Made by a program: the position numbers and the translations under genes. Positions 1,306-64,000 of a DNA stretch of 64,000 nt are shown here, in pieces (the first letter of the stretch is position 1; each line of letters opens with the position of its first letter). Location: the IMG/VR virus record IMGVR_UViG_3300021962_000047, positions 1 to 64,000 of that record, one strand, 5' to 3'. The notes below the pieces were generated by a model, which was not told where the DNA came from, did not search any database, and worked only from the letters and a program-made list of their open reading frames with translations. This DNA comes from a virus.

Positions 1306-4242
1306 TTACCCACAATGTATCGTTACGTTTATTCCAACATTAAGTTGTAATGTTGAACCTTCAAATCCTCCATTGCAAGCTAAACTTGATACTTTTAACA
1401 TATTCCCATTTATAGTGTAATCTAAACCACTATCAAATAAATAAGACAACTTATCATTTAAAGCATTTTTCCATTGATTATTTGTCGGGTAATCTGATGC
1501 ACCGTACCCTGTATAGAATTGTTCTTGTATTAGAACACTACCATCTAATCTTAAATCAACATACCAATCAGATGTTACAGAATATAAATCACATTGACTT
1601 GTGGTATATCCACTAGATTCTACACAAGAAACTATTTGATTATATAAAATTTGGCTAAACCCTATTGTAGGATTAATTGAGCATTCAACATATTGGTCAA
1701 CACAATCGTATCCAAATAATTGTCCAGTGACTGAACATGGTACACAAGGAATTGGAACTATTTCACAACCTCTCTGTCTTCTCCAAACAACTTTTTGTCT
1801 GTGGAATGCAGAGTTCTCCATCTTCATACCCCCCATCCATATGGTAGATGCCGGTATCATTTGTTCAACAAATCGAATCCAATAATCACCAATACCTAAA
1901 GTGAAATCAATCATCTTTTGATATGTGTATTGATTAGATGGAACATTGATTGCCTGTTGAGATTGTAGATAATCCCAATAAACTTTTTGTAATGTTGGGT
2001 AACCACCAGTTTTTCCATCGGTAATGGTTTGACGGTTTCTAACATTAATCATATTATGATAGAAAGTTTGAGCAAATTCAAAGAATGTTTTTTGTTTTGG
2101 ATTTGGTTGAATTACGGTATTATCAATCCCACCCTGTCCTGTTGTCAAACCTGTTGAAGGTATCGGATAATTTAATCTATTAGACATTACCCAAACATCG
2201 TAAGTTAATCCTTGACCTACGTTTAAAAATAAATCAATATTCTTAGCGTTTAATACTAATTTCTCATCTTCAACCCTATAATAAGCATTGTAAGCTCCAG
2301 TACTCCTTCTTAATCCTGTCGTTTCTACACTCCAAGATTTTAAATTGTCATATACTCTTGTTAAATCAAACCCAACAGTCATATATGGGAATTTTCTAAA
2401 TACATCAAAATATTTTTGACCGTAAGAGTATGGTTCTAAAACTGTTTGGAAGTTAGGGTTTGAACCTGTAAATACCGATGCTGTGATATCAACCTCTTGA
2501 GGTGCCCTATGTTTAGGTGTTTGTTCAAACCAACCTGAACCCTTTTCAAAGAACATATCAACAGTATTAATAGGTGCCTTTGGGTATCCATATTCATCTA
2601 CAGGGTAGTTTAACCTATTAAGATTTATATTATAAATGTTGGCAGTTGTTGTTGTTCCAGTGTATTGAGTACCTTGTATCTTATAGACATTATTTGGGTC
2701 GAGTACCGGAACTATATCACTATATGTACCACCAGTTAATTGAGAGAATTGGTCATCAAATACACTCATATTAATTGGTCCATCCGCAAGATAAATTGTT
2801 TCATTAAATTCAACTAATGCTTGTGGTGCACCAACCATTCTCAATACCGCTTCAATAGATTTTCTTGTACCTTTTGACCTAAATAAGAAACCAGCATTTA
2901 GAATTATTTTTTTATAAAAATCATAATTCAATTCACTCGGTGTCATATCACGAGTATAACCAGGGTAAATTGAATCATTCTTCGTTCCAAATACCGACTC
3001 TAAAAAGTTATCATTAGTAATTGGAGATATATTAGGATTATATCCTAATGTTAATGCTAAATTTTGTAATAATTGTGACGGAATATCATTTCCAGGATTG
3101 TAATTTACCGATGTCATATAAGCCAAAGCATCGATGAATTTTTTAGTTTCATCGTAACTTCTACCATAAACTTGAATTACTTTTTCAACTCTTTGGTCAT
3201 CGGTATCAAAATCTTTAAATGCCCCTGTGATTAAAAATCTACTAATAAGATTTGTTTTCCAATTATCAATTGACTCCGCAATTTGACTTAGGTTATTTAA
3301 ATACGTATCAAAATTAATTGTACGGATATCTAAATTCCATCTACCATCTAAACTCCAAGTAACCGATTCATTGGCAATATAAAATTGACCATTTTCACTT
3401 TCTCTTGGGTATTTGAAAACCGCAGTATATTTTGGTCTAATTAATCTGTTTAATAAAAAATCTTCAACTTCATCAAAAGGTTCATCAAAAGCAACTTCAA
3501 CATAAAAATTATTAGGTCTAATAAGTAATGATTCAGTAGAGGTTGCTCCATTAAATGGATTACCTTTTACAACAATTTGTAAATTACCTGAAGATGATGA
3601 ATTTGTCGGTGTAATATCAACTATTTTATATTCAGTTTCACCTGTTGAAACGAATAAGGCATATTTTAGATATTCATTTGTAAAGTTTCTTAAAGGACTG
3701 TGATTGTATGGTCTTACAGATAAATTTCTATCAGCATTAACCGTATAATCAATATCAAACGGGTTTTTTATACGAGCGACATCAATATCAAAAGTAGTTT
3801 CATCTTCAATTGGGTCGTATGAGATATTTGTAGCAGTATTCCCTGTTGTAAAATCATAATACGTTTTATCTACTTCTAATGCCGCAGGAAAAAAATTAAT
3901 AATTTTTGTTATCGATACTTGAAATCTTTTTTGTAATGAACCATATAATGAAAAGTTTGTTACAACCGAAATGTCATAGTTTGGATAAACTCGATATTGT
4001 TTTGCTAAAATTGCCCTCGCCTGAGCAACATTATCTAAATCTAAAGTTTCTAAAGTAATTGGGTCAGAAAAAACTCCAACATCAAAAGTTCTATTAACTT
4101 TTTCAACTATAGATGTTGTGAATTCAAAATTACCTTGCGTTAGACCCCCACCCGTTACTAATTGCAAGCCGACTAAGTCAGGTGAGAACGTTTGGTCTCC
4201 TGACGGTGGTGCTGGTGGATATCTAAATTTATTACTTGCCAT
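1306..4242 (-). CDS. Baseplate wedge protein (T4 gp7 / P2 gpI-like)
   Basis: 978 aa. LLQNLALTLG...KKIILNAGFLFRSKGTRKSIEAVL matches the gpI/gp7 'KGT' signature. It lies downstream of gp25/gp6-like genes. Confidence 0.65.
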   Translation of the reverse strand: MASNKFRYPPAPPSGDQTFSPDLVGLQLVTGGGLTQGNFEFTTSIVEKVNRTFDVGVFSDPITLETLDLDNVAQARAILAKQYRVYPNYDISVVTNFSLYGSLQKRFQVSITKIINFFPAALEVDKTYYDFTTGNTATNISYDPIEDETTFDIDVARIKNPFDIDYTVNADRNLSVRPYNHSPLRNFTNEYLKYALFVSTGETEYKIVDITPTNSSSSGNLQIVVKGNPFNGATSTESLLIRPNNFYVEVAFDEPFDEVEDFLLNRLIRPKYTAVFKYPRESENGQFYIANESVTWSLDGRWNLDIRTINFDTYLNNLSQIAESIDNWKTNLISRFLITGAFKDFDTDDQRVEKVIQVYGRSYDETKKFIDALAYMTSVNYNPGNDIPSQLLQNLALTLGYNPNISPITNDNFLESVFGTKNDSIYPGYTRDMTPSELNYDFYKKIILNAGFLFRSKGTRKSIEAVLRMVGAPQALVEFNETIYLADGPINMSVFDDQFSQLTGGTYSDIVPVLDPNNVYKIQGTQYTGTTTTANIYNINLNRLNYPVDEYGYPKAPINTVDMFFEKGSGWFEQTPKHRAPQEVDITASVFTGSNPNFQTVLEPYSYGQKYFDVFRKFPYMTVGFDLTRVYDNLKSWSVETTGLRRSTGAYNAYYRVEDEKLVLNAKNIDLFLNVGQGLTYDVWVMSNRLNYPIPSTGLTTGQGGIDNTVIQPNPKQKTFFEFAQTFYHNMINVRNRQTITDGKTGGYPTLQKVYWDYLQSQQAINVPSNQYTYQKMIDFTLGIGDYWIRFVEQMIPASTIWMGGMKMENSAFHRQKVVWRRQRGCEIVPIPCVPCSVTGQLFGYDCVDQYVECSINPTIGFSQILYNQIVSCVESSGYTTSQCDLYSVTSDWYVDLRLDGSVLIQEQFYTGYGASDYPTNNQWKNALNDKLSYLFDSGLDYTINGNMLKVSSLACNGGFEGSTLQLNVGINVTIHCG

Positions 4243-5147: not shown

Positions 5148-5151
5148 TGTC

Positions 5152-6234
5152 TTATGTTTTGTTTATTTTAAAGAAACCATACCCATAACGGACAAGGTCT
5201 CCAATGTTATCAACTTCTCCCAATCTTTGTAATGCTTCATATGCTGAAAGTTTTCCTCTATCAATAAATATTTGTGATTGTATTTCTGGCGAGGAAACAA
5301 AATCTAATAATACTTCTTGTTTTGTAATTCCACTCGTAACCAGTTCATTTTCGGTTAATCCTGATGATAAAACAAAGAAAACTGTAGTTCCATCCACATA
5401 ATCATAGTAGTCAATATTATTGATTGTGTATGCAGTATATTCAGGTGTCATCTCATTAATTAAACCAAAAACCTGAGCATTTTTAATTATGGGAACATTT
5501 ACCGCATATTTTATAGAACCATATTGTTGTAAATCTTTAATTTGAGATGTTGTATATCCACTAACTGTAAATGGTACTGATGTCCATGTACTTGACGCTT
5601 GACTACTCGCAACATTTTCAGAATCACCCGTAAAAATATAATCATAACTTAAAGGAGTTCCCGCCCAACTTCCACCTTGAGGTGTAAAAGTTATTTCACC
5701 AAATGGGTTTGGAATAGCAGCATCAGTATATGGAACTGTAATTGTTTTAGATACTTGTGTAGTACCCCATGGATTTGTTTGAGTTAGTGTGATTGTAAAA
5801 TCAGACGCAAAAGTATATGTGTGACTTAAATATGATGGTGACGTTTCGTTAATAATTTGAACTGGTGACCCGTCCCCCCAATTTAAAAGATAATTACTTA
5901 ACTGTAAGAAACTTTTAAATTCAGTATCCGAGGTATTATACACATAAATGGTATAATTGTTTGAGGTATCGGCTGAATATAAGAAATTATTAACAACTTC
6001 TTTTTGTAAAATAAAACCATCAAATGGCGTGTAATAACCCAAATCATTAAATGAATCCTTAAACAACACGGGTATAGTTAAACCCGTCAATATACTATCC
6101 CCATTTGTACCCCCACTTAATATTTGGGTCATACCGGTGTAAACACCGAATGTGTTACCATCATATGTTTCAGAAACAATATCATTTTCTAATACACCTG
6201 GAGATATCTTAATATAATACTTTTCAGATTCCAT
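5152..6234 (-). CDS. Virion protein with PKD-like Ig domain
   Basis: 360 aa. LNWGDGSP...HTYT...FTITLT is the PKD WGDG signature. Confidence 0.6.
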   Translation of the reverse strand: MESEKYYIKISPGVLENDIVSETYDGNTFGVYTGMTQILSGGTNGDSILTGLTIPVLFKDSFNDLGYYTPFDGFILQKEVVNNFLYSADTSNNYTIYVYNTSDTEFKSFLQLSNYLLNWGDGSPVQIINETSPSYLSHTYTFASDFTITLTQTNPWGTTQVSKTITVPYTDAAIPNPFGEITFTPQGGSWAGTPLSYDYIFTGDSENVASSQASSTWTSVPFTVSGYTTSQIKDLQQYGSIKYAVNVPIIKNAQVFGLINEMTPEYTAYTINNIDYYDYVDGTTVFFVLSSGLTENELVTSGITKQEVLLDFVSSPEIQSQIFIDRGKLSAYEALQRLGEVDNIGDLVRYGYGFFKINKT

Positions 6235-7040
6235 TATGGGTTAATATATTCATACCATTTTATGGGGTTTGTTGATGTACCAACTCGAACATTAAATAGA
6301 TTTGTAACATCATATTCAAAATTGGCGTAATCAACATTCACCTTATAATAGAAATACTTTGACTTATCAAAATTAAATTCGTTGGGTAACGAAGCTTGTG
6401 GTTCTGTCATCATTCTAATAAAATCACCAGTTTTTGCATTATAAAATTTAGCCGACATATAAAATGTGGTTTCAGTTATATAGGTCGGATTCTTTAACCA
6501 ATACACAAAAAAACCTTCTTTATCACCAACATAATCTAACACGAAGTCAGGTGTTTTAATTTCAACATTTTGTACGGTTAATCCGGTACCAATATTAGAT
6601 GTTACCGTATTACCTTGTTGTGTGGGAATAATAATAGTAGCTCTGATTTCTTGAGTTTCAGTGATATTACTATTATAGAAATCTATTTTAAAGAAACTAT
6701 TTTTAAACGAGTTAGCGAAATAATATATCTCTTTATTCGTAAATGTTTCGGCGGTGTAAGACATAACCCAATCAGATACTGTAGAAGCTGTAACTTGATT
6801 AACCGCAGGTAAAAAGAAAAACTGATAATTAATATCCGTTTGACCTTGTCCGTACATCTTATGAGCATAACGAGTAACTTCAAAATCTTCAGTAGGATTT
6901 ACTATTAAATCTAAAACTTCATTTTCATACACATCAATAGCATCTCCCCTTCCTAACGTATCCCACGTCATTTCAACAGGAATGTTTATCTGTTGTGTTT
7001 GATTAAATTTAGCAAATCTGTAATTATTCACAATCGTCAA
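6234..7040 (-). CDS. Hypothetical virion protein (start may be the GTG at 7031)
   Basis: 268 aa ORF, TAATG-coupled, in the structural cluster. Confidence 0.6.
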   Translation of the reverse strand: MTIVNNYRFAKFNQTQQINIPVEMTWDTLGRGDAIDVYENEVLDLIVNPTEDFEVTRYAHKMYGQGQTDINYQFFFLPAVNQVTASTVSDWVMSYTAETFTNKEIYYFANSFKNSFFKIDFYNSNITETQEIRATIIIPTQQGNTVTSNIGTGLTVQNVEIKTPDFVLDYVGDKEGFFVYWLKNPTYITETTFYMSAKFYNAKTGDFIRMMTEPQASLPNEFNFDKSKYFYYKVNVDYANFEYDVTNLFNVRVGTSTNPIKWYEYINP

Positions 7041-8751
7041 TTATTGGGTCTACTATTATACCTATATTTGGTTGATTTACATTTCTAACAGGTGGGACCT
7101 GCATAAACTGTATCTCTTTAAATGGATAATGGGAATTGTTGGTGAATGGGTGGTCGATACCATAACCTTCATCATCTATATACCCATATGGATATAAATC
7201 TCTCCATCTCCATTGCTGTTCTGTTTGTGAGTAAAATGCATAGTTTGGTATGTTATCAATTTCATCTTTAACTCCAAATTCAACATATGATGAAAAATCT
7301 CTCACTTTAACAGGATGGTGTGGTCTGTATAAATAACCCGATTCAAAGTTTACTGGTGAATTATTGATAAAAAGAATTGGATTATATGAATATTTGTGAT
7401 ACATCGGACACAATAGTGATTCTCTCATATCATATTCATTCCATTCACAAAAATCCCCTTCAATAATATTATCAACATTTAAATTATTATTGTAATAAAA
7501 AGTATTTGAGTTGTATGAATACGACGATGTTGTAAGACCCAAATCTTTATTATTTAAATTTGAACTATCCCACCATTGGTCTACTGAGTTTGTTAGAAAA
7601 TTAAATTCCCAACCAACACTCAAACCAGGGTAATTATTCGCAAATGGTTTGTTAAACCAACCCATATATCCTTTTTGAATTATTGTCACAAATAATTCTC
7701 TAACTGGCATTTTATTATTATCAATTAAATTTGTAATATCAATATCTTTTTCAAAAGAAAATCCCGTCGTCTGACTTCCATTTTTTATTGATGTCCTTTG
7801 TATATTGTTTGGGGTTAAAGCCGAATATTCTAATTTTACTTCATTCTTAAATGGTATATTTTCAAAACCTAATTTAGTTAAAGTATAATCATCAACCGAT
7901 GTTAAAATTTTATGTTTTCTAATGTAATACTTTGATGTAGTTTCACCTGTATTATTAATATCAGTTATTCTTTTTAAAGTTCCCGTGGTTCCATCAGCAA
8001 AACCTGAAGCATATCCAATATTATATATTGAAAATACTTTTAAATCTGAACCAAAATTTTCATCCCCAAATGAATACACAGGAAAATAATCTTTTCCATT
8101 TACTGAAAAAGATAATTTTACATAATCACCTTCAGATAAATTATGATGACATCCACAATAAAAAGTTATTAAAGTTTTACCATTAACTTCCCTATTTTTA
8201 ATTACAAACGGAATACCATCTGATGCGATAAAGTTTACCACACCATTTAATTCTTCATTTTCGTATCTCATGACCTGAGTAGTATCAGAAGAATAAGCGT
8301 AACTTAGATACATAGTCCAATTGTATGTAGACGCACTCTTATTTACAAATGGGATGTGTCCAGGTATACCAGTGGTTCTATAAAATGAAAATTCATCATA
8401 TTGGACATACCCTCTCCAAGCACTTATTTGTGGAGGAGATTGTTGAGCATTTATCGTCTTCGCTTCAATAGCATTTAGATAGTATAAATTATTACCAAAA
8501 GGAACATAATTTGTGTAACCTGAAATACTGTTATTGAATAAATTCGATACCTTACCACTTACCCTGAAAATATTACTTTTTTGTCTTTCTTCGTAAAAAC
8601 GTTCTTCAAGATTTAATAATACCGTTCTATCACCTTCAACTAAATCTCTTTGGTCTCCATTTAGTCCAAGTTGTAAATAAACATCAGTATCCGCAGCACC
8701 CTTATATTGGTCTGACTTCCTAACAATTCTTATATCTGTTGGTTCGCTCAT
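7024..8751 (-). CDS. Hypothetical virion/baseplate protein
   Basis: 575 aa ORF with an ATGA overlap to the upstream gene, aromatic/Asn-rich composition. Confidence 0.6.
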   Translation of the reverse strand: MSEPTDIRIVRKSDQYKGAADTDVYLQLGLNGDQRDLVEGDRTVLLNLEERFYEERQKSNIFRVSGKVSNLFNNSISGYTNYVPFGNNLYYLNAIEAKTINAQQSPPQISAWRGYVQYDEFSFYRTTGIPGHIPFVNKSASTYNWTMYLSYAYSSDTTQVMRYENEELNGVVNFIASDGIPFVIKNREVNGKTLITFYCGCHHNLSEGDYVKLSFSVNGKDYFPVYSFGDENFGSDLKVFSIYNIGYASGFADGTTGTLKRITDINNTGETTSKYYIRKHKILTSVDDYTLTKLGFENIPFKNEVKLEYSALTPNNIQRTSIKNGSQTTGFSFEKDIDITNLIDNNKMPVRELFVTIIQKGYMGWFNKPFANNYPGLSVGWEFNFLTNSVDQWWDSSNLNNKDLGLTTSSYSYNSNTFYYNNNLNVDNIIEGDFCEWNEYDMRESLLCPMYHKYSYNPILFINNSPVNFESGYLYRPHHPVKVRDFSSYVEFGVKDEIDNIPNYAFYSQTEQQWRWRDLYPYGYIDDEGYGIDHPFTNNSHYPFKEIQFMQVPPVRNVNQPNIGIIVDPIIDDCE

Positions 8752-11700
8752 ATCAAGTCCTCATTAAATATATATTTTGTTATGTATTTGTTCATTGCTG
8801 ACTTTCCTATTCTTAAACCAAAATAGAAATGATATGGTGAACCCTCCATAATGTAGGAAGGCATCGTCGGTATTGTGGTTTTAACATTAATAGTAGGGTT
8901 AATACCACCAGTTGATGATGAGTTATATATAAATCCAGGTTTTTGTGTAGTCGGTGTCGATACTTCCGATGGGAAAGTTGGTTGTCCTGAACTTGGTTGA
9001 CCACCAATTAATCTATCAACCCCTTGATAATAAATTGTATTAATTGTCGAGTCGACCGCAGTTTTAGTATTCCAATCATTTAATTGATTACCAAAAATTA
9101 TATTACCATTAGATTGTATCTTCCAAGGGTGATAAGGGACTTGTTGGTCCTCAAACCCATAATAGTTCGTTAAATAGACAATAGTATTATCTGCAAATGT
9201 TGTACGACCAGGTGTTATTAAATCTCGGTTTTCAGTATTACCAGTAAAGAAAATACCTAATACTGGTCCGTCAGAACTTGTTAAATATTTAATGTTTGAA
9301 TCAGTATAATTGTCACCCAAATAAGGTGTAACACCAAATTCAGAATTAATACTCAATAGTTGTGCAATATCACCATCTAATCTACTATTTTCTCTTGAGA
9401 ATAATTTAGAAACTGAACCGTCACCTAAACCAATTAATTGTTCTAAGAAATTAGCATCAGTTAATCTACTAATAACAAATAATTGTAAGATATCTGAAGT
9501 ATCGTTGTAACTTGTAGTTCTAACTTTATCTATGATAAACCCTTCAAAATCAGGATTAAAACAAATTTCTTTGGTGAATTGGTCACGAGGTCCTAAATCC
9601 ATCATAGTTGTAGGATAACCTAACAATCTATTGTTTAATGCTGCACTTACAGGGTATGGGTCACCATTATTCTTTAATGGTGAATTTTTACCGGTAAATT
9701 CAGTACCGTTAAATGGTGAACTTCTATAAAAAAATGAATTATTAGTTTCCTTAAAAACTAAATTATCAATACAATATCTATAAGTTACATCAGTATTAAA
9801 TGTTGCCGCGGAAAATGGTGCAAGATATAATGTGTCTTTTTGGAATGAGAACATATATAAACTACCATTAATCCAGTTATTAACAAAAGTTAATGAAACA
9901 ACATTTCTACAAAGAGCAAACATCATTCTAAAACGACTCTTCCATTCTGCAAATAACTGAACGTCTTTTACGATACCACTAAACCCTGGTTTTTGTACTA
10001 AATAATAACATCCACCATAAATCTTTTTTAGGTCATCTTGTTTGTCAACATAGTAACAATCGTTCGTAGAAATTGCCACACCAAAGTTTTCACCATTACC
10101 TGTATAACATCCTAACGGAACCATAGTTTCACAAGCAAATGTCTGTAAAATTGTTGCTGCCATGTTTCCAGCATCTTCAGCAAAATCATCAGGTGCATCA
10201 TTAAAATTATCAGTACCTGTTGTGTACGTAGGTGTGGGTTGACTACTACTTCCTAAATCCGAAACTTTATATATTGCAAAATCTTTATTTTGATGTAATA
10301 CAAATCTTCTATCATGAACATCAGATGATGGTAATCTTTCTGACCTCATAATCATTCTGGATGTATCAGTCATTGGTAATGTATCACTCGGATATTGAGT
10401 AAAATATGTTGGTGAATAATAAAAATAATCATTTCTATTTGGATTACCACTTCCCCCATTACATAACATCATTGTACCACCTTCAACTACCTCATTATCC
10501 CAATAACCATTAATAAATCCATCTTTACTGTTACCCATATTAACCATCTTATTGGCTGAATTTCTAGTTGCAACAGCGTTATTTACCAAATTAAAGTCAC
10601 TAGAACTTCCCGCGGAACCAGAGCCCACTTTATAGTTATCAGAATCTAAACAAGAATAATCTAAGTGATTTTTAGTGGTATAACTAGTATAATTTGAACC
10701 AACAGTGAAGGTATAACTACCAAAGAACAAATACCCATTATTTGACGAACCATTATTTGTTAATTGATTATGTCTAGGTAACTTCCAATTAGTTGAAGAT
10801 GTGTATCTTTGAATTGGGATATTCATTTTGTAGTTACCCCTAACTTTTGGCCCATTTCCAAATGTTGTACCATATAAAGTCGATAAATCAAAAATTGTAT
10901 CCTGTCTGTCAGTATACATATCAACACCTCTAACTAAGAAAACAACAACATGATTTCTAAATTCAGAATTTAATTTTAAATTAGGATAATTGTTTAAGAA
11001 CTTATCGTCACCACCACCATCAGGATAAATATCAGGATTTGAACCTCCACCCTTTTTGATTCTTTGATACCCCATCAAGAATCTGTTAATGAATTTATTA
11101 TTTGCGGTAACATATCCTGACTCATTAGATGTCGGTGGAGCCCCAAAAGGAGATGCCATATCAATATATGAACCAACGGTAGTTGCCGTAATAACTTGGA
11201 AATATTCAATGTCCGAAGGGAAAACGTATTTATTTTTATTTGTACCCGTAGACCCTGTTATACTATAAATTGTACTACTATTTAACCCTAAGTTACTTGG
11301 GTTCATGTAGTTAACTGTAACATTATAAGAAGAACTTGTTATTGAGGTACCTGTTGTTCCGCCACTAATATTTGGGTCTATAGAACTATTAATATTTTGA
11401 AATGTAATAATACTACCAGCCGTCAATGTCTGTTCACTGTTTGGGTCACAAACAATTGCCATAACATTATCATAGTGAAATTTACCTGTGTTACTATTTG
11501 GGTTAACTTCAACTTTAATTTTATTATATCCACCATTAAGATGGTATTTAGATTTAACATTAAATAAATTTAATCTTTCACCTAACGTTAAATCCCACGA
11601 CCAAGTTTTATAACTTGTATATGGATTACCATCTGGGTCAATATCATCCATAAATGGTGATTTAGTCCAAACATCATTATTTGTACCGTTATCAAAACCT

Positions 11701-16128: not shown

Positions 16129-16159
16129 TGTCTATAAATATTGTAAGTAAGTAATTTAT

Positions 16160-37045: not shown

Positions 37046-37089
37046 CTATTTTTTATTTATCTATAAATAGATGATTGGATATTTTTTTA

Positions 37090-39821: not shown

Positions 39822-40310
39822 TTAGTAAACCAAAATACATCTGTCAGGACGTAATGTAGCTGTGATTGTAGCCACACCGTCGTCCGAGTATCCTAACGAG
39901 TCAAAGTTCACGTCAGTTAAGAATGTACCCTGAAGAATCCATTTTTCAACCGCAACACCTGTTGGGTCTAACATCTCCAAGTTAATATTCTTTTTGTAAC
40001 CTGCTGCGTATCCCATACGACCAGTTACCGATTCAGCATGTAAACGAACCCACTCCATAAGAGCTTGAGCCGCTGAAGGACCAATTGGGTCACGGAAAGT
40101 TACGTTAATAGTATTCCAAGTAAAACGACCTGCAACATAAGTGGAGGTGTTTAAGAATGGAATTTCTGTTGGGTTAATAGAGATTTGTGGACGAGAAGTT
40201 GATTCTACGTACCAAGAGTTGATTCCCAAAGATGAGTCAAACGTTAAGATAAATCTATTCTTACGTTTTGGTTCATAAGGAATCGGCATTTTCATTAATA
40301 AATCAGCCAT
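39822..40310 (-). CDS. Tail tube protein (gp19-like)
   Basis: YEPKRKNRF, YVAGRFTWNTINVTFRD, ALMEW, YKKNINLEMLDPTG..VEKWILQG. Confidence 0.9.
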   Translation of the reverse strand: MADLLMKMPIPYEPKRKNRFILTFDSSLGINSWYVESTSRPQISINPTEIPFLNTSTYVAGRFTWNTINVTFRDPIGPSAAQALMEWVRLHAESVTGRMGYAAGYKKNINLEMLDPTGVAVEKWILQGTFLTDVNFDSLGYSDDGVATITATLRPDRCILVY

Positions 40311-40436
40311 TGTATTTTAGTTTTTTAGTTTCGTTTATTTTTTATATAAATAGTGTCCTTGTCGAAAATTTTTCTATTTACTTATTTTTTTAAAATCTGA
40401 TTATACATCCAGAACTAGAACTTAAATATAACTTAA

Positions 40437-54174: not shown

Positions 54175-54235
54175 AATACTTTTTTTTGAGACATTATTCT
54201 CTCACCAATGGTGAGATTACTCTTGTACTATGATA

Positions 54236-54264
54236 AGTATAATAAACTATTTGTTATTCGTCAA
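54236..54264 (-). promoter_or_regulatory. Candidate sigma70-like promoter for the polymerase gene
   Basis: TTGACG-N17-TATACT about 60 nt upstream of the ATG. Confidence 0.6.
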
Positions 54265-54614: not shown

Positions 54615-54654
54615 AAATTCTGTTTCCTAATAAATAGTTTCTTAATCTAATTTA

Positions 54655-57600
54655 TTAAGAACAGTTAGAGTAGAACGTAATATTGTTAGGTGAACAACTT
54701 GTCAAAGTATATTGACTATAGTTAGTTGCTGGAGGGTCTCCAGGGTTAGATGGTGATTGTGCATAAATGTAGTTACCTTGGACATCTGCTGCGATTTCAC
54801 TATAGAAAATCGTTAATGAACACGGTGCAGGTGGGTCAACCGCACCGATTTCAACACGAACCACATCACCAACACATGCGGATATTGTAGTTGTAGTATT
54901 CGAACCACAAGGAACACCAGTTCCAAACGAATAAACCTGAACTCCATTAACTTTAATAACTCCAAGAGTTTTAATACAACAAGTAGAACCAACAATACAG
55001 CCTTGTTTAATATGTTGAACATTTATTGTACAACATTGAGTTGTTTGAGTTGGTGTAACAGTTCTGGTTGGTGTTGGAGTCCTTGTTGGAGTTCTCGTAA
55101 CTGTTTGAGTTGCAGTTTTAGTTGGCGTAGGAGTTGCAGTTCTCGTAGGTGTTGCAGTTCTCGTAGGTGTTGGAGTCGGTGTTGGTGTTGTAATAACACT
55201 CGTACATGGGTAAGATTCGGTACATGTAGCACAATCATCATAAGTAATACCACCAAATCCACCTGTAAATACAGACCAAGTTATTGGTACATCAAGTATT
55301 TTATTTAATGTGTAACAATTATTTGAAATTCCTCCTTGTTCTGAAACATACACAATTAGACCATTATTATTACTCACATACTCACAAATACTAGTATCTT
55401 GACTACCAAAGTAATATATTTCAAATTCACCTTCGGAACAACAATTGTCCGATAAACTAAAGTAACAATACTCAGGACTTGTTGGAGTCGGAGTTAATGT
55501 TGGTGTTTGAGTTGGTGTAGGTGTTGGTGTCGGACACGGAGCTACATCATTACAAGCTGAACAATCGACATATAATGTAGTCACTTTATACTCTGCGGGT
55601 TCTGGCGTTCCCACTAAGTCATAAATTGTGTAACAAATTCCGTCAATTATAACAACATACCCTTGTAATTCACTTCCATATGCCGTTGGAACATCAACAA
55701 ATTTCACAATTTCAGTTCTTCCATCACAACATTCAATCATTGTTAATTCCCATGTAGTGTATGCAACCGTTTCGGTTGGGGTATTAGTAGGTGTATTTGT
55801 TGCGGTTAATGTAGGTGTAGCTGTTGCGGTCAACGTAGGTGTTGATGTCAACGTAGGTGTGTTTGTCGATGTTAATGTTGGAGTTGAAGTCCTTGTTGGT
55901 GTATTTGTAGCTGTTAATGTTGGAGTATTTGTCGCGGTCAACGTAGGTGTTGCCGTTGCGGTTAGTGTTGGAGTCGAAGTCCTTGTTGGAGTATTTGTGG
56001 CAGTTAACGTAGGAGTTGAAGTCCTTGTTGGTGTATTTGTTGCAGTCAACGTAGGAGTTGAAGTCCTTGTTGGGGTATTTGTTGCGGTTAATGTTGGAGT
56101 ATTTGTCGCGGTTAAAGTTGGAGTATTTGTTGCGGTTAAAGTAGGAGTTGAAGTTCTTGTCGGAGTATTTGTTGCGGTTAAAGTAGGTGTTGAAGTTCTT
56201 GTCGGAGTATTTGTCGCGGTTAAAGTAGGTGTTGATGTTAATGTTGGAGTATTTGTTGCAGTCAACGTAGGTGTTGATGTTAATGTTTGGGTTGGTGTAG
56301 GAGTAACTGTTCTTGTTGCCGTTAACGTAGGAGTGTTTGTCGCTGTTAGTGTAGGTGTTGATGTTAATGTTTGAGTCGGTGTAGGAGTAACTGTTCTCGT
56401 TGCAGTTAATGTAGGTGTACTGGTTGATGTAAGTGTTTGTGTTGATGTAACTGTTTGAGTTTGTGTTGGAGTAACCGTTCTCGTTGCGGTTAATGTTGGA
56501 GTACTAGTTGAAGTCAACGTAGGTGTTGAAGTCAATGTAGGTGTGCTGGTAGATGTTTGTGTTGGAGTACTTGTTAAAGTCGGTGTGTTAGTTGCAGTTA
56601 ATGTTGGAGTAGATGTTAGTGTCTGAGTATTAGTAGGTGTAACCGTTCTGGTTGATGTTAATGTCGGTGTGTTAGTTGGTGTTTGAGTTGGCTGTGCAGT
56701 CAATGTAGGTGTCGCAGTTGAAGTCAATGTAGGTGTTGAAGTCAACGTAGGTGTACTTGTTGAAGTTAAAGTTGGAGTATTAGTTGCGGTTAATGTGGGA
56801 GTATTTGTTGATGTTAAAGTAGGTGTAGATGTTAATGTTTGAGTTAAAGTTGGCGTTTGTGTTGGAGTAGATGTAACTGTTTGTGTCGGTGTCGGAGTTG
56901 GACATGTAAATGTAGTACCCGCAACTGCATCACCATCTACATCAGTTACAATATTGATTTGTGTTGGGTCACTTATTCTTTGAATATATAGGCTTGGACC
57001 TCCGTATAATGAAATTAATTCACTATAAATGTAAGGTGTTAGATTACCATCTGAATATAATGTTTCACCTTCAATTACAGGGTGGTCATTATCATAAATT
57101 ACAATAGTTGATGGTGTACCATAACATAAATCATTTAAACTATTTGATATATAATAGTTTTCAGCATTTTGAATTTGAGTTGGTGTTGGTGTAGATGTTT
57201 GAGTGCTCGTAGGGGTTGGAGTATTTGTAGAACTCAATGTCGGAGTAGAAGTTAATGATTGAGTCGGTGTTGGTGTAACTGTTCTTGTTGAGGTTAATGT
57301 AGGAGTATTAGTTGCGGTTAAAGTAGGTGTACTAGTTAAAGTAGGTGTTGAGGTCGAAGTTAAAGTAGGTGTGTTAGTTGATGTTAATGTTGGCGTATTA
57401 GTTGAAGTTAATGTTGGCGTTTGACTCTGAGTTTGTGTATTAGTTGGAGTAACAGTTCTTGTTGATGTCAAAGTAGGTGTTGACGTACTTGTCAATGTTG
57501 GAGTACTGGTCGTTGTTGGCGTTGAAGTGCTCGTCTGAGTTGGAGTATTAGTAAGTGTTTGAGTTGGAGTTGCAGTTAATGTTTTAGTGGCTGTTACTGT

Positions 57601-58440
57601 TTGAGTATTTGTTGGTGTTAAAGTTAAAGTACTTGTTAAAGTAGGTGTTGAAGTACTTGTTAGTGTTGGCGTTTGAGTTAAAGTAGGAGTTGAAGTACTT
57701 GTTAATGTTGGAGTACTTGTTAATGTAGGTGTTGAAGTACTTGTTAGAGTTGGCGTTTGAGTTAAAGTAGGTGTTGACGTACTTGTCAATGTCGGAGTAC
57801 TTGTTAGAGTTGGTGTTGACGTACTTGTCAATGTTGGAGTACTCGTTAAGGTTTGAGTATTCGTTGGGGTTAAAGTGGGTGTTTGAGTTAAAGTAGGTGT
57901 TGAAGTACTTGTTAAAGTAGGAGTTGAAGTTAATGTAGGTGTAGATGTACTAGTTAAAGTTGGTGTGCTTGTTAATGTCGGTGTTGAAGTGCTTGTTAAT
58001 GTTGGTGTAGATGTACTTGTTTGAGTCGGAGTATTAGTCGGAGTATTAGTAGATGTTAATGTCGGTGTCGAAGTGCTTGTTAAAGTTGGTGTTGCGGTAC
58101 TCGTTTGTGTTGGAGTGTTTGACAAAGTCGGAGTACTCGTCAATGTAGGAGTTGACGTACTAGTTTGAGTAGGAGTATTTGTGAGTGTTTGAGTTAATGT
58201 TGGGGTGCTAGTTAATGTTGCAGTTAAAGTTGGTGTTGGTGGAATAATATGAATATATGTTTTATCATAATAAGGAACATAAATTTCATAAGTACCTGTA
58301 AAATGAGGCGCAATATAATTAAAAGGCATTGTAAGCGTACCTAAATCAGATGGGTCACCACCTTCATCAGACAAATACGTAACCTGAACTGTAAAACCAC
58401 TTAGGTTTTCACTTAAAAATCTAATACCTTCTCCCGCCAT
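54655..58440 (-). CDS. Mucin-like Thr/Pro-rich modular virion fibre with Cys-rich modules
   Basis: 1261 aa. Two long [14 protein letters not shown] tracts, one internal globular domain, two 6-Cys modules and a Cys-rich C-terminal domain. Confidence 0.8.
55770..58240 (-). repeat. Degenerate coding tandem repeats (18/24-bp units; [22 protein letters not shown]), interrupted at 56902-57171
   Basis: Visible in both DNA and protein, with varied third codon positions. Confidence 0.9.
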
Positions 58441-58502
58441 TTTTTATTTTATAATAAATATTACCTAATCTTATAATCCCATTTTATTTTTTAGTAATTT
58501 CT

Positions 58503-61500
58503 TTATATACAATAGAACCATTTATTATTTAAGTAGTTGTGTGTTACAGATAATTCTGAAGGTGTCAATACTCTATTCCACAATAATACCTCATATATAA
58601 ATCCACCGTAGTAATATCTGAATGATGATGTCCCTGTTCTATCAACACCAATATATAGTGTATCTATGGATGCATTTGTTGATGTACCAACATTTGATAA
58701 GAATGTTAATGATTCCTGAACTCCGTCAATATAGAATTTAAGCTTGTCAGCATTTGTAGATTGTGTACCATCAAATACCATAGTCCACATATGTGGGTTT
58801 AAATCGGCGATTTGGGATGTCTGAGCTAAACCATTTGCAGCTCCTACAACAAATGTACCACCACTTAATCTTAAGTTAGAATTGTTAGTGGATACGTTAC
58901 CGATACCAGATGTGATAAATTGTTGTGTGGTACCAGTATTTACCAATTTACCTAAAACAATTGCAGTAAACCCTGTGATAGCCGCAATAGATGTTAATGG
59001 GTTAACACTCAAGCCATCAGATGTCCCATCAAATTTAACAGCACTTAATCCACACTGTACATTGGTCCACCACGCAGGTCTGGTTGTGGCACCTCCGATT
59101 GGGTTGGCATTATGTGCACTTGCAGATGAGTCATACCATTGAGTAAAGGTATCACCACTCACAGGTGTTGGGTTAAAGTTAGTATCTAAACTTGCGTCAT
59201 AATAAATTTGTAGAGTTGGGTCTGACGGTACAACCGCCTGTGTTGCGGTTAATGTTAAAGTTGGTGTTGGTGTAAGTGTTTGAGTAATAGTAACCGTTTG
59301 TGTTAAAGTAGGTGTTGGAGTTGGAGTTAATCCGCCAAGTGTTTGTGTTGGTGGCAATGGTGTAGAAGTTATATCATTAGTCGGAGCCGGCGTAAATGTT
59401 AATGTTTGAGTTGGTGTTAAAGTTGGAGTTGAAGTACTTGTTAATGTCGGAGAACTTGTTAAAGTTGGGGTTGAAGTACTTGTTAATGTCGGAGAACTTG
59501 TTAAAGTTGGGGTTGAAGTACTTGTTAATGTTGGTGTAGGTGTCGGTGTAGTCACAATAAATGGACTAAAATCTACAATAACCGGACACTCACATTCTGA
59601 GGTATCCACACTAATCACACCAAATGATTGAACACATTCACCAGGTTGTAATACACCACTTAAATTAAATGTATGTACGTGGTCATTAAATGACATAGTT
59701 TCTGAACCATAGAACACAGTTCCCATATCACCACGAGCAACACCTGAAATAACATAATCACATAGAGCATTGGCATTACTTGTAAATCCACTATCGTTAT
59801 ATAACTTTATTGAGAAGTTAGAACATCCTCCTAATTCAACCTGAAGATATTGTGTAGTTACCGGACAACTTGGAGTATTAGTTAACGTTGGTGTATTTGT
59901 TAAGGTTGGTGTACTGGTTGAAGTTAAAGTAGGTGTTGAAGTTAAAGTAGGTGTTGACGTACTAGTTAAAGTCGGAGTAGAAGTTAAAGTAGGTGTTGAT
60001 GTGCTCGTTAGTGTTGGTGTCTGAGTTAAAGTAGGTGTTGAAGTACTTGTTAATGTAGGAGTGTTAGTTAATGTAGGTGTATTGGTTGATGTTAAAGTAG
60101 GTGTTGACGTACTAGTTAAAGTAGGTGTAGACGTACTTGTTAGTGTCGGCGTTTGAGTTAATGTCGGAGTATTTGTAGGTGTTGGTGTAGGAGTTGGACA
60201 AATTTGGTCCACACCACAAACCGATTCACCATCAACATTATTAACTATATTAATTGTTGAACCACCAACCTTCTTAATGTAGAACGGAGTTCCACCAGCA
60301 ATACTCTCTAAATCAACATACGGATATGGTGTTAATAAACTATCTTGATATAATGTTTCACCCTCAATAACGGGATGGTCATTATCATAAATTAAAATAG
60401 TTGGATTTTCTCCATAACATAACGAATCTAAACTATCTGAAATATAATAGAAATCAGCATTTTGTACTTCAGTCGGTGTAGGTGTTGATGTTAATGTTGG
60501 CGTGTTCGTTGCAGTCAACGTCGGAGTTTGGGTCAACGTAGGAGTTGAAGTACTTGTTAAGGTTGGTGTACTTGTAAGTGTTGGAGTATTAGTTGACGTT
60601 AATGTCGGAGTTTGAGTCAACGTTGGTGTCGAAGTACTTGTTAATGTCGGAGTTTGAGTCAGAGTCGGAGTTGAAGTACTTGTTAAAGTTGGGGTACTTG
60701 TTAATGTCGGTGTATTAGTTGAAGTTAAAGTCGGAGTACTTGTCAACGTAGGAGTTGATGTACTTGTCAATGTTGGAGTTTGTGTTAAAGTAGGTGTAGA
60801 AGTACTTGTCAACGTAGGAGTACTTGTCAGTGTTGGTGTGTTAGTTGAAGTTAATGTAGGAGTACTGGTTAGGGTTGGGGTATTAGTTGCGGTTAAAGTA
60901 GGGCTACTTGTTAGGGTAGGCGTGGGTGTACTTGTTAAGGTAGGACTCGGTGTAGGTGTTTGAGTTGGTATATTAAAGATATACCTGAAAGTATAAACAT
61001 AATTGTAAATTGTACTACCTGAATTAACGATACTAACATTACTAATACCACTGGTGTAATTCAATAAAGAATAATTTGTGGTTGCACTTAATTGAGTCCC
61101 ACCTGATAATGAACCCGCACCGAGTTCGATTGTAGGTTCAAACACCAATGACGAACCATTTTGTAATCCAAGAGTATTGTTAAAATTAATAACAACTGTA
61201 TTATCTACAGTTCCATCCATGGTTGCCGAATATGATGCAAATACAGAACCCGCGGTGTATGTTCCAACAATATCAATAGTTCTAGTATTGATTAATGTTG
61301 GAGTTGGTGTTGGCGTTCTTCTTGGAGTTTCTGTTGGTCTAACAAAAGGAGTTACACCTTTATTTGGTCTACAACACGTATCACTATCTGCGAACGATTC
61401 AATTATATTAACATATAATACATTCCTAACAGGAACAATATATTCACCTCTTTCATTAACAATTTTAAATTCACCAATGTATCTACCAACTTTAGATGAT

Positions 61501-61733
61501 GTTTTTTTGTTGAATTGATAATAAACAGAATAACCTGAACCATCTTCATTGATAGTTACACCCGCAGGAACATTAGCTAATCTATAAATTCCTGTATCAA
61601 CATCTTTAAGTGAGAATGTAACTGTAGACGCTGACAAATATTGGTCGAGCTGATGATACCCATTTCTCGATTCATTTATTACCTCAACCATCAATTTAGG
61701 TAATGTACTATTCTGTCTTATAAAAAACTCCAT
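58503..61733 (-). CDS. Modular fibre: BppU-like N-terminus, Thr/Pro stalks, C-terminal LamG/ConA-like domain
   Basis: 1076 aa. C-terminus LQIYYDAS...WYDSS...VKFDG...FYIDG...IYEVLLWNRVLT...YLNNKW. Confidence 0.8.
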   Translation of the reverse strand: MEFFIRQNSTLPKLMVEVINESRNGYHQLDQYLSASTVTFSLKDVDTGIYRLANVPAGVTINEDGSGYSVYYQFNKKTSSKVGRYIGEFKIVNERGEYIVPVRNVLYVNIIESFADSDTCCRPNKGVTPFVRPTETPRRTPTPTPTLINTRTIDIVGTYTAGSVFASYSATMDGTVDNTVVINFNNTLGLQNGSSLVFEPTIELGAGSLSGGTQLSATTNYSLLNYTSGISNVSIVNSGSTIYNYVYTFRYIFNIPTQTPTPSPTLTSTPTPTLTSSPTLTATNTPTLTSTPTLTSTNTPTLTSTPTLTSTSTPTLTQTPTLTSTSTPTLTSTPTLTSTNTPTLTSTPTLTSTSTPTLTQTPTLTSTSTPTLTQTPTLTSTNTPTLTSTPTLTSTSTPTLTQTPTLTATNTPTLTSTPTPTEVQNADFYYISDSLDSLCYGENPTILIYDNDHPVIEGETLYQDSLLTPYPYVDLESIAGGTPFYIKKVGGSTINIVNNVDGESVCGVDQICPTPTPTPTNTPTLTQTPTLTSTSTPTLTSTSTPTLTSTNTPTLTNTPTLTSTSTPTLTQTPTLTSTSTPTLTSTPTLTSTSTPTLTSTPTLTSTSTPTLTNTPTLTNTPSCPVTTQYLQVELGGCSNFSIKLYNDSGFTSNANALCDYVISGVARGDMGTVFYGSETMSFNDHVHTFNLSGVLQPGECVQSFGVISVDTSECECPVIVDFSPFIVTTPTPTPTLTSTSTPTLTSSPTLTSTSTPTLTSSPTLTSTSTPTLTPTQTLTFTPAPTNDITSTPLPPTQTLGGLTPTPTPTLTQTVTITQTLTPTPTLTLTATQAVVPSDPTLQIYYDASLDTNFNPTPVSGDTFTQWYDSSASAHNANPIGGATTRPAWWTNVQCGLSAVKFDGTSDGLSVNPLTSIAAITGFTAIVLGKLVNTGTTQQFITSGIGNVSTNNSNLRLSGGTFVVGAANGLAQTSQIADLNPHMWTMVFDGTQSTNADKLKFYIDGVQESLTFLSNVGTSTNASIDTLYIGVDRTGTSSFRYYYGGFIYEVLLWNRVLTPSELSVTHNYLNNKWFYCI
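59245..60965 (-). repeat. Three degenerate Thr/Pro coding repeat tracts separated by globular domains
   Basis: [14 protein letters not shown] and TQTPTLTS units in the translation. Confidence 0.85.
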
Positions 61734-61746
61734 CTACTTACTATAA

Positions 61747-64000
61747 TTATAAACAAGGGTTATCATTTATACAATCAGCACAATCTGTATATACTGGTGA
61801 ATCAATATAAAGTACATTACTACCAGGTGATATAGGACCAATTGGTCCAAAAAGTACCGTTATATAATAACACTTACCTTCATATTGGATTATATCACCA
61901 ACATTCAATATTGACGTACTATTAATTGAATCTAGTAATGAGTCACCATCATCACAACAACTTAATGCCGTCATATCTCCATACCCATAAACACATTCAT
62001 TTTCCGATGTACATTCAACACACGTTTCATAAACGTTAATTACAGTTAAACCTAATGGAGGTCCAATTGCTGGTGTTGGAAGAGTAATAATCTCAAAACA
62101 TTGGACAAACCCATCATGTTCTATAGTAACAATATCACCAAGATTTAAAGTTGTAAGGGAACTAATAATCTCAATAGGTTCTTCCCATCCATCTATACAA
62201 CACGATTTTAATGTTCCAACCTCATAATTGTAATATACCGGTTGTGAAAGTGTTGGTGTAGGTACTGGTGGTGTATATGTTGGTGTTGGCACCGGAGGTG
62301 TCTGTGTCGGAACTAACGGTGTTGACGTAACATCATTTGTCGGTTGAGGTGTAAATGACAATGTAGGTGTCATCGTAGCCGTCAACGTAGGTGTCATTGT
62401 CAACGTCGGTGTTTGAGTTTGAGTTGGATATAAGATTACATTAACATCAACCTCACAATTTTCATCCGTTACATTAAAGTTGAAATCACAATTTGCATCA
62501 ATAATATTAAATCCAAAATCACATTCGATATCATTAATTGCATAATCAAATCTACAAGTGACTGTATCAACATTGAAGTCGAAATAACATTGTGACAATA
62601 TCTCCAAACAGTTTGGACACCAATAATCGAATAAATTAAATCGGTCCTTCAATACCCTGAAGTTGTGTTGGATTTGAGATGAATCCAATGGTTCAACATA
62701 CATTCTGAATTGAGATATACCCCCCATAAAGGTTCCACCAAAATTTTGTTCCATCAAAATATCGGTTGTCAATCCAGATAATGAGGTACCTGACAAAGTA
62801 TTGTTCGGCATCAATTCAGGGTCCTGAATATATGGACCATAACGGTCTTCACAATTTTGGAAGATTAAACTCTCACGAAGACCTTGAGTACCACCACCCC
62901 ATGAAATGTTAAACGGAACTCCGATTTGTTTTTCACGTTGGGTGTTTAACTCACGAGGAATAATTTCTTCAAAATCTTCGATAACCATAAACAGGTAACC
63001 GTTAACATATAAACGAAGAACACCTCTTCTATCTTCAACTTGTCTTAACCATTTTCTGTTAAGTTCAATAACTTCTTCAGGTAATTCTTTTTTACCACCC
63101 TCGTGTGTTTGAGGGGGTTGAATAAGGTTTACCGTGGCACCATAGGTTTCAGAAGAATATACGTATTCGCGTATGTCTCCCAATCCCCCTTTATTTAATA
63201 GGTCACATCCGTCGTACCACCTATATCGGTCAAAGACAGCTGTTAACATTACCCATCTTTCTTTTGTTCTTTCGGCTTCAGAAACAGGATAACCACAAAC
63301 ATCATAGATACCACGAGATGAACATATCTCATTAATTGTATATCCCGAACAATATGTCAACCCAGTTGTTTCACATGTTCCCGTTGTGACGCAATCACCC
63401 GTTAACTTAATGTATTTAACACATAATCGTGGGTTTTTAGGGTCACCACTCAAACGAATAGACATTGCATTTGAGAATACATCCATCGCTGGGTCAACAG
63501 GTGGTTCAGGAACCTCTGTATTGTATGAACAAAACGGACCAATATTGTGTTGAACAGTTGTTGCGGTTTGAGGGTAAACCAACAAACAATGAGATAATGT
63601 ATTTGCGGTGTCGGCACATCCGCATGTTTTAATACAATCAGTTAAACCTGATGTAACTCTTTGGTATTCCCATTGTGTTCCACCCGACGTATCAAAATCA
63701 AAATCACATTTGAAATTCTCAGGAGTTTGAGTTAAACCAGAGGCTGGATGATAAAATTTATTTTCAGCACGAGTACCAAAGAAAAAGAATGTTCCCGCAT
63801 TTTCAGGGTAAACTGTGTTTAGATATGTCTGGTGTTGTTCACGGATATGGTATTCATCTACCTGACGTGGTTTGATAACCGTCTCCATTGTCCACCCCTT
63901 ATTAACCCTTTCAGGGAAAACTTCATAATCGTAACCATGTAATTTGTAGAAACCCTGAAAAAATCCACCATATAATTCTTGGTAATAACCAACTTGGCTA
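61747..64000 (-). CDS. Modular virion protein (5' end beyond the window): LamG-like domain, 11-aa Cys repeats, Thr/Pro linker, two 6-Cys modules
   Basis: The frame stays open past 63888 to the window edge (SQVGYYQELYGGFFQGFY...GWTMETVIKP). LamG-like WVMLTAVF...LRLYVNG...FMGGISQFRMY. Confidence 0.8.
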   Translation of the reverse strand, partial: SQVGYYQELYGGFFQGFYKLHGYDYEVFPERVNKGWTMETVIKPRQVDEYHIREQHQTYLNTVYPENAGTFFFFGTRAENKFYHPASGLTQTPENFKCDFDFDTSGGTQWEYQRVTSGLTDCIKTCGCADTANTLSHCLLVYPQTATTVQHNIGPFCSYNTEVPEPPVDPAMDVFSNAMSIRLSGDPKNPRLCVKYIKLTGDCVTTGTCETTGLTYCSGYTINEICSSRGIYDVCGYPVSEAERTKERWVMLTAVFDRYRWYDGCDLLNKGGLGDIREYVYSSETYGATVNLIQPPQTHEGGKKELPEEVIELNRKWLRQVEDRRGVLRLYVNGYLFMVIEDFEEIIPRELNTQREKQIGVPFNISWGGGTQGLRESLIFQNCEDRYGPYIQDPELMPNNTLSGTSLSGLTTDILMEQNFGGTFMGGISQFRMYVEPLDSSQIQHNFRVLKDRFNLFDYWCPNCLEILSQCYFDFNVDTVTCRFDYAINDIECDFGFNIIDANCDFNFNVTDENCEVDVNVILYPTQTQTPTLTMTPTLTATMTPTLSFTPQPTNDVTSTPLVPTQTPPVPTPTYTPPVPTPTLSQPVYYNYEVGTLKSCCIDGWEEPIEIISSLTTLNLGDIVTIEHDGFVQCFEIITLPTPAIGPPLGLTVINVYETCVECTSENECVYGYGDMTALSCCDDGDSLLDSINSTSILNVGDIIQYEGKCYYITVLFGPIGPISPGSNVLYIDSPVYTDCADCINDNPCL

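Follow-up and report, generated by a model that had tools for sequence, protein, structure and literature searches.

The outer tail proteins encoded in a 64,000-nucleotide window of viral DNA (positions 1-64,000 of the 105,971-bp IMG/VR viral contig IMGVR_UViG_3300021962_000047, CheckV completeness 34%) share a short ordered motif, [S/T]-[G/A]-x-T. The source is a distant T4-like myovirus, and a preliminary description of the window had proposed the motif as a glycosylation sequon of the virion. Our analysis confirms it as a genuine, selected, ordered and lineage-wide signature of tail proteins, Thr-specific at position 4, which marks the outward-facing tail parts, namely the baseplate periphery, the fibres and the inserted region of the sheath. 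In regard to its nature, the reading that we favour, with a probability of roughly 40%, is that of a presumably turn-forming structural idiom, free of covalent modification, which has been amplified in beta-rich tail modules.

All motif counts made by hand for individual proteins were reproduced exactly, including the zero copies each in the tail tube, the tape-measure candidate and the gp6-like protein. Nine contig proteins pooled hold 55 copies against 11.3 expected, the excess in the motif-rich outer tail, baseplate and fibre proteins being about fivefold, while all the other proteins hold 17 against 19.4, with no depletion in the non-virion and cytoplasmic ones. This enrichment goes beyond S/T/G/A content and local composition. 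When low-complexity proteins are left out, the contig carries 72 copies against 30-35 under global and 40-, 20- and 10-residue block shuffles (z 6.5-7.5), the 10-residue blocks alone giving 34.6 (z 7.1). Reversing the motif, or arranging its residue classes in four other ways, leaves z at about 0 on the contig, and local composition was rejected as the cause on both these grounds. Sub-pairs of the motif are weak as well ([GA].T 1.2x, [ST][GA] 1.08x, [ST]..T 1.15x). The S, T and G codons vary between copies, so the pattern is one of the protein level, and a motif in the DNA was rejected. Likewise, paralogy among the contig carriers was set aside, as BLASTP finds none, and the earlier claim that unrelated folds share the motif was supported, the enrichment being independent of fold.

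Among individual proteins (Table 1), the 360-amino-acid (aa) protein of the baseplate region has its copies at residues 33, 40, 50, 87, 225, 267, 291 and 301, and none of 2000 shuffles reaches the observed 8 (expected from composition, 1.0). Likewise, none of 2000 reaches the 9 copies (expected 1.9) of the fibre-like protein 58503-61733 with its Thr/Pro tracts masked. The fibre-like open reading frame (ORF) cut by the window end starts at contig position 64533 rather than at the ATG at 63888; in its full length it holds 10 copies against 1.33 (p 1.5e-6), the part after that ATG 8 against 1.15. In the replication and nucleotide enzymes, for which few copies had been noted, we found 3 against 3.4 expected; composition predicts that number, and there is no avoidance. 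The Bacteroidota sequon D-[S/T]-[A/I/L/M/T/V] is not enriched in the motif-rich proteins (25 against 24.8) or in the others (75 against 68.3).

Among approximately 375,000 three-position patterns, the motif ranks first on the contig (log10 p -9.8). In three control phages, the top patterns chosen post hoc reach similar values (T4 -9.4, S-SM1 -10.6, and -13.9 for [ST][GA]S in Mel-JY01), so that the in-window p-value cannot decide the matter by itself. The motif itself stands at 1.1-1.3x in T4 and Mel-JY01, where no protein falls below p 1e-3, and at 1.4x in S-SM1, where [ST]G.T reaches 1.8x from GGSGYT-type units and a transferase scan limited to PF00535 (GT2) gave no match. In Mel-JY01 (PP395634), an unrelated myovirus, a sister pattern [ST]GS is concentrated in hypothetical proteins of the baseplate region downstream of the tail lysozyme (11 copies against 1.4 in 167764-171774 and 9 against 0.6 in 177502-179658), with similar per-protein significance.

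The comparison with two relatives, G001 (99% complete) and the more distant G004 (138 kb), carries more weight. G004 proteins without a BLASTP match to the contig, almost free of detectable paralogy, hold 71 copies against 21.2, and in this set the motif leads all 352,947 patterns (log10 p -16.8). Since these proteins had not been seen when the motif was first described, the observation is decisively supported. The G004 fibre cluster holds 61 copies against 15.0 under block shuffles (z 12.4), with the reverse and permuted orders flat, and it shows that Thr is needed at position 4 ([ST][GA].S, 9 against 11.5) and a hydroxyl at position 1 ([DN][GA].T, 8 against 8.5). In G001 the homologous proteins are again rich, as in the case of 1306-4242 (7 against 1.41) and the ORF from 61747 (8 against 0.86). 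A 735-aa G001 protein without a homologue on the contig holds 14 against 1.66; taken as a set, such G001 proteins are not enriched (55 against 45.4). Homologues of 7024-8751 hold 6 against 0.5 in G001 and 5 against 0.56 in G004, and that of 8748-13748 holds 10 against 2.87 in G004, where the gp6-like homologue is likewise devoid of the motif. The excess of 6234-7040 is not kept (one copy in G001, none in G004). Non-repetitive proteins are among the richest, namely the 735-aa protein, a 750-aa protein (14 against 1.55) and the 360-aa family.

This family counts 2116 homologues, and the 120 listed carry 7.6 +/- 1.5 copies against 0.9 expected. S and T, as well as G and A, interchange at fixed columns, and the homologues have three more recurrent sites that the query lacks. 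The Ser/Thr residues of the motif remain Ser/Thr in 0.91 of the homologues, in comparison to 0.59 for other Ser/Thr (p 6e-5), a hydrophobic residue is conserved at x, and at several sites Gly never varies. In the sheath, residues 100-360 of 119 homologues hold 6.5 copies per sequence against 1.8, distributed over 18 recurrent columns with turnover of sites, whereas the conserved remainder stands at 1.17x. Selection on copy number was considered for the sheath and abandoned as not informative, the variance-to-independent-site ratio being 0.63 for the motif and 0.63 for a control pattern too.

The product of 41494-44673 is a tail sheath. PF17482 matches it with 30 bits, above the cut-off, and PF04984 with 28 bits, below the cut-off of 31.4, while its homologues carry both Phage_sheath_1 and Phage_sheath_1C domains. 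The AlphaFold model is confident only at residues 105-420 (predicted local distance difference test, pLDDT, 85-93), and this part matches the fold of solved sheaths (9ezm with Z 6.8, root-mean-square deviation 3.0 and 103 aligned residues; 8jaj with Z 5.5). A PAS-like alpha/beta insert occupies residues 126-283 (43825-44298) of the outer region, with Z of 4-5 to PAS domains. Inserted sheath domains face outward in T4 and phiKZ. In the model, the six sites differ in context: residue 189 is at the end of a helix, 232 at a helix N-cap, 222 and 318 are in loops, and 287 and 345 are where strands end. All lie at boundaries of elements, but of mixed type. For the 360-aa protein the AlphaFold model is poor (pLDDT 52), and a profile search with its family found no solved relative.

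The motif was originally assigned to exposed virion proteins, and the enrichment is confined to distal-tail proteins and the inserted sheath region. The major capsid protein, encoded beyond the window (2 copies against 0.8), the tail tube, and two tail-region proteins of putative role (2205 and 1577 aa, about 2 against about 2.3 each) are not enriched.

Sequence context is also informative. Position -1 is hydrophobic in 56% of the copies in comparison to 35% in the background, charged residues are depleted there, and the motif Thr is followed by a polar residue at +2 and hydrophobic ones at +4 to +6. Many copies in G001 and G004 recur at a set position within identifiable repeat units (Table 1), of which the collagen-like, together with Peptidase_S74, and PF03382 are clear from Pfam and homologues, and SprB reaches 25.8 bits in a G001 protein (cut-off 28). 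In the SprB-like units, three each in G001 and G004 and none on the contig under study, [ST]GGT is the consensus: it appears in 39% of 3175 units from the 149 best homologues of a representative library without organism names. This part of the signal in the relatives is the known SprB structural signature.

In the structural idiom that we favour, a hydrophobic residue would close a beta-strand or a helix, the Ser/Thr hydroxyl of the motif would cap the backbone, Gly/Ala would permit a tight turn, and the beta-branched Thr would begin the next element. The requirement for Thr but not Ser at position 4 fits a preference for beta-branched residues. Such an idiom could recur in SprB-like, leucine-rich-repeat-like, BspA/DUF285-like, beta-helix-like and collagen-like modules as well as in the PAS-like insert, and module shuffling within the lineage would spread it. 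The structured context, the hydrophobic x, the shared repeat positions, the SprB-like consensus, a cellular baseline of approximately 1.5x (1.59x in SprB-like and 1.46x in the mostly cellular BspA/DUF285 homologues) and the [ST]GS pattern of Mel-JY01 all suggest this origin, as does the lack of any covariation between transferases and the motif.

Several observations weigh against it. A general idiom would be expected in other phages too, but the tail proteins of T4, Mel-JY01, XacN1 and RAS14 stand only at 0.83-1.3x, and the 4-5x of the lineage exceeds the cellular baseline. The six sheath sites share no secondary-structure element, and the sites in the variable sheath insert shift their positions, with the count holding close to 8. 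Furthermore, the phage repeats were compared with 2598 DUF285 units from 119 homologues, among which are many named bacterial surface proteins of the BspA family. Asp/Asn follows Trp in 92% of these units and Thr in 1.3%; [ST][GA]WT occurs in 0.6% and a match to the second tetrad, SAVT, in 7.7%. Three of the four anchored units of the phage protein carry SGWT and SAVT, and the motif thus seems to have been written into a fold that is normally without it. These phage units are paralogues, so the change may represent only one or two events. The protein concerned is a G004 fibre protein with BspA/DUF285 repeats (L139:16152-19757), which has W-T in place of the usual W-D/N; in homology it is closest to surface proteins from Flavobacteriia (Arenibacter, Polaribacter, Maribacter, Tenacibaculum), which may hint at a Bacteroidota host.

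Alternatively, and in our opinion possibly, albeit doubtfully, a cytoplasmic enzyme encoded by the phage, most plausibly an O-glycosyltransferase with Thr as its target, could use the motif as an acceptor or recognition tag and decorate the sheath surface and the exposed distal tail ahead of assembly or in the course of it. Many of the above results would suit such a tag: the fold-independent and lineage-specific enrichment of 4-5x with first rank in proteins unrelated to the contig, the requirement for a hydroxyl at position 1 and Thr at position 4, the exchange of S/T and G/A at fixed columns, the turnover of sites in the outward sheath insert, the heterogeneous secondary-structure contexts in the sheath model, and the introduction of the motif into BspA/DUF285 repeats. 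On the other hand, the conserved hydrophobic neighbours suggest partial burial, the capsid, the tube and the two large tail-region proteins lack enrichment, cytoplasmic proteins are not depleted, and the under-dispersion of copy number is not motif-specific.

The modifying-type enzymes predicted to be encoded outside the window were indeed found. A cassette of transferase and sugar-nucleotide genes, adjoining a dUTPase-like gene and an exonuclease gene, lies at 69.9-78.4 kb of the contig. It includes a two-domain GT2 transferase, whose best solved relative is chondroitin synthase (2z86, E 2e-24, two stretches) followed by heparosan synthase, as well as a sulfotransferase, a nucleotide-sugar dehydrogenase, a GDP-mannose 3,5-epimerase homologue (E 7e-95), PhoH, a weak GT-B and a second GT2, with Glyco_tranf_2_5 among the Pfam matches. 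Judged by homology, this content would point to a sulfated glycan with L-galactose or L-gulose. Glycosaminoglycan-type attachment at S-G-x-G through UDP-xylose was rejected, as the dehydratase-like enzyme is the GDP-mannose 3,5-epimerase homologue and not a UDP-xylose synthase. PF00535 (GT2) is shared by 7 of 14 long relatives, among them the one complete genome, and absent from G004, where the syntenic site after the fibre genes holds HtrL_YibB, Glyco_transf_7C, a GT10 fucosyltransferase-like gene, GT25 and PF11397/GT60. The island therefore seems to be a variable cassette resembling an O-antigen locus, present beside fibre genes in the contig, G001 and G004 with differing contents. Together with the mucin-like tracts in neighbouring fibre proteins, such islands make some glycosylation of the virion plausible. 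An extended form of the tag explanation, in which the islands diversify the glycan and the protein tag stays fixed, is similarly tentative.

PF11397 has been equated with CAZy family GT60 (PMC6418280), to which belong the polypeptide alpha-GlcNAc (N-acetylglucosamine) transferases that initiate O-glycosylation of the mucin type in protists (PMC8724618, PMC9472816). Its conserved presence in 9 of 15 lineage contigs, including G001 (G001:C1:102475-103350), would favour a tag. Otherwise the family is typical of protists, and it is absent from T4, S-SM1, Mel-JY01 and 14 control prokaryote genomes. The family was not matched on the contig under study, itself 34% complete. Homologues with 44-46% identity are encoded by the cultured jumbo phages XacN1 (ORF334) and Xoo-sp13 of Xanthomonas and RAS14 and CM1 of Stenotrophomonas. 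Since XacN1 and RAS14 carry GT60 and show no excess of the motif (0.96x and 0.83x, respectively), GT60 is unsupported as the motif-linked enzyme. Phage transferases are also known to modify DNA and host polysaccharide (PMC12619734). In XacN1 the GT60 gene lies among genes for DNA polymerase, RNase H and carbamoyltransferase, and the two-domain GT2 transferase looks, from its homology, like a polysaccharide polymerase, so that DNA or polysaccharide targets are live alternatives. No transferase family tracks the motif, which stays the same with GT2-type enzymes in the contig and G001 and with GT10/GT25/GT60-type enzymes in G004, and transferase genes lack the word TATTTATA that precedes the structural genes. 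Taken together, the sequon first proposed passed the composition test and has the predicted genes in its favour, but it is left without linkage to a transferase, with GT60-bearing phages free of excess, and with capsid and tube not enriched; no enzyme can be tied to [ST][GA]xT.

It is unlikely that the pattern has no single cause and instead sums unrelated repeat signatures (SprB-like [ST]GGT, collagen-like G-S-T-G-P-T, leucine-rich-repeat S-G and DUF285 S-x-V-T), undetected distant paralogy among fibre modules that evolve fast, and the effect of a motif chosen post hoc. The post-hoc patterns of the controls, similar in significance to the motif on the contig, the unenriched set of G001 proteins without contig homologues, and the many G001 and G004 copies within repeat units would agree with such a sum. 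Against it, the pre-specified motif came first in independent G004 proteins nearly without paralogy, non-repetitive proteins are among the richest, and the copies on the contig lie outside SprB-like units, of which it has none. Least probable is a shared non-covalent function of the distal tail proteins, such as hydroxyl-rich polysaccharide-binding loops or a tag for a fibre-assembly chaperone. In its favour, the motif is restricted to receptor-proximal parts, and in feature space the motif-rich 83314-84825 lies closest to viral clusters with CBM96 in 14% of their members; against it, no motif of this form turned up among known glycan-binding or chaperone motifs.

Related to this, several known systems resemble the one described here in part. 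According to PMC12619734, which cites Freeman et al. 2023, mycobacteriophage virions carry O-glycans, added by phage-encoded glycosyltransferases, at the C-termini of both capsid and tail-tube subunits. Phage-encoded glycosyltransferases, and structural proteins made in the cytoplasm as proposed acceptors, are common to both cases. Unlike in that account, the tube here has no copies and the capsid few, and the candidate carriers would be proteins of the baseplate, the fibres and the sheath insert. In Clostridioides difficile, SgtA adds O-GlcNAc to Thr in the collagen-like GPT triplets of BclA3, reading T-G-P-T (PMC7157674), which fits the motif; the transferase is soluble, its gene adjoins that of its substrate, the protein that it modifies is a surface fibre, and relatives of our phage have collagen-like fibres with G-S-T-G-P-T units. 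The window, in contrast, has no collagen-like protein, its copies are in globular domains, and no SgtA homologue was identified. The chlorovirus capsid proteins, glycosylated at non-canonical sites by virus-encoded enzymes (PMC7019647), offer a likeness in the cytoplasmic, virus-encoded machinery that acts on virion proteins outside host sequon rules, but there the glycans are N-linked, the substrates are capsid proteins, the virus is eukaryotic, and the motif is different. These three systems are the precedents for a tag. The GT60 enzymes are comparable through PF11397 in the lineage and the Thr/Pro mucin-like tracts of fibre proteins; their known acceptors, however, are Thr-rich tracts or Skp1 hydroxyproline rather than [ST][GA]xT, and the gene was not matched on the incomplete contig. 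Finally, the SprB repeat (PF13573) of giant Bacteroidota surface proteins has the same tetrapeptide at a beta-sandwich strand-turn and has units in the fibres of the relatives, although the contig itself has none and SprB-repeat proteins fall short of the phage enrichment.

Table 1. Motif-bearing proteins, motif-free comparators, glycan-related gene clusters and repeat units (copies of [S/T]-[G/A]-x-T are given against the expected number).
Feature	Coordinates	Strand	Remarks
978-aa protein, short-fibre (gp12) position	1306..4242	-	6 copies vs 1.35, p 0.004
360-aa baseplate-region protein	5152..6234	-	gp10 position by gene order; 8 copies
268-aa baseplate-region protein	6234..7040	-	3 copies vs 0.39, p 0.0045
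575-aa baseplate-region protein	7024..8751	-	4 copies vs 0.44, p 0.001
1666-aa baseplate-region protein, gp7 position	8748..13748	-	7 copies vs 2.5, p 0.015
gp6-like baseplate wedge, motif-free comparator	13820..15658	-	phrog_219, E 4e-17; 0 vs 0.72
Tail tube, motif-free comparator	39822..40310	-	phrog_4542, E 1e-30; 0 copies vs 0.31
Tail sheath gene	41494-44673	-	8 copies vs 3.05, 6 at residues 189-348
Sheath inserted variable region, codons 100-360	43594..44376	-	6 of the 8 sheath copies
1261-aa mucin-like protein, 35% Thr, TPTLTS-type tracts	54655..58440	-	1 motif copy
1076-aa fibre-like protein, four Thr/Pro tracts	58503..61733	-	9 copies outside tracts
Fibre-like protein cut by window end	61747..64000	-	true ORF 928 aa, to contig 64533
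Glycan cassette	contig 69905-78391 (L001:7905-16391)		about 6 kb past window
G004 transferase island	L143:3848-12496		G004 123.8-132.5 kb
Leucine-rich-repeat-like unit			N-x-L-S-G-x-T; G001/G004
BspA/DUF285 unit			I-S-G-W-T-x-S-A-V-T-x-M; G001/G004
SprB-like unit			[ST]-G-G-T-x-P-Y-x-Y-x-W; G001/G004
Beta-helix-like unit			F-S-G-x-T-I-G-N; G001/G004
Collagen-like unit			G-S-T-G-P-T-G; G001/G004

Two further rich proteins are encoded beyond the window, 83314-84825 (6 copies against 0.8) and 81762-83291 (3 against 0.39). A heptapeptide, SGYTTSQ, is common to 1306-4242 (residue 877) and 5152-6234 (residue 225), which otherwise have no BLASTP similarity. Two domain labels of the preliminary description were not borne out. 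For the 360-aa protein, called a PKD protein, PF00801 reaches 19.4 bits at residues 114-167, below the cut-off of 23.5; none of the eight motif copies lies inside this segment, and a few homologues carry precomputed PKD matches. In the protein from 61747, called LamG-like, Pfam shows no LamG domain. The tracts of 54655-58440 extend over residues 67-420, 511-892 and others, and such Thr/Pro tracts are more conventional candidate acceptors of O-glycosylation than the motif.

Gene order, compared with that of T4-like phages, would place the ORFs 8748-13748, 7024-8751, 6234-7040, 5152-6234, 4242-5147 and 1306-4242 at the positions of gp7 to gp12. Genes annotated on the contig include those of the gp25-like protein, the gp6-like wedge, tail tube, hub protein and sheath, and of the enzymes ribonucleotide reductase, helicase, exonuclease and a UvsX-like recombinase, while the part beyond the window holds a gp23-type capsid, portal, prohead protease and terminase. 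Beside these head genes, at 85-106 kb, homologues of ribosomal protein S21, a class II tRNA-synthetase-like domain, a KTSC domain protein and an M23 peptidase with a peptidoglycan-binding domain are encoded. An annotated close relative was not found in the phage collection searched. The lineage is a widespread and abundant marine group of T4-like jumbo phages, with more than 5000 sheath homologues and the homologues of the 360-aa protein indicating thousands of metagenomic relatives.

In regard to gene expression, the T4 late promoter TATAAATA was tried as a mark of genes and rejected; instead, the reverse word TATTTATA marks them, situated in gene orientation 4-34 nucleotides 5' of the start codons of structural genes. 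It precedes the genes of fibres, the gp25-like protein, hub, tube and head, as well as 83314-84825, at positions including 1287-1302, 16133-16140, 37062-37069, 40345-40352 and 64547-64574. Versions with one mismatch are found 5' of the sheath, tape-measure candidate and mucin-like fibre genes, and the word was not found 5' of transferase genes. We regard the word as a candidate for a late promoter or an element of the leader.

If the tag is modified, no acceptor motif would have been defined before it for glycosylation of tailed-phage virions, and such systems would become predictable from sequence. A glycan coat on the receptor-binding apparatus would then affect host recognition, adhesion to marine polysaccharide or mucus, and resistance to proteases. 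If, on the other hand, its role is only structural, the motif would still be a useful marker of exposed tail modules, as well as a warning that short Ser/Thr-Gly patterns in fibre proteins can mimic sequons.

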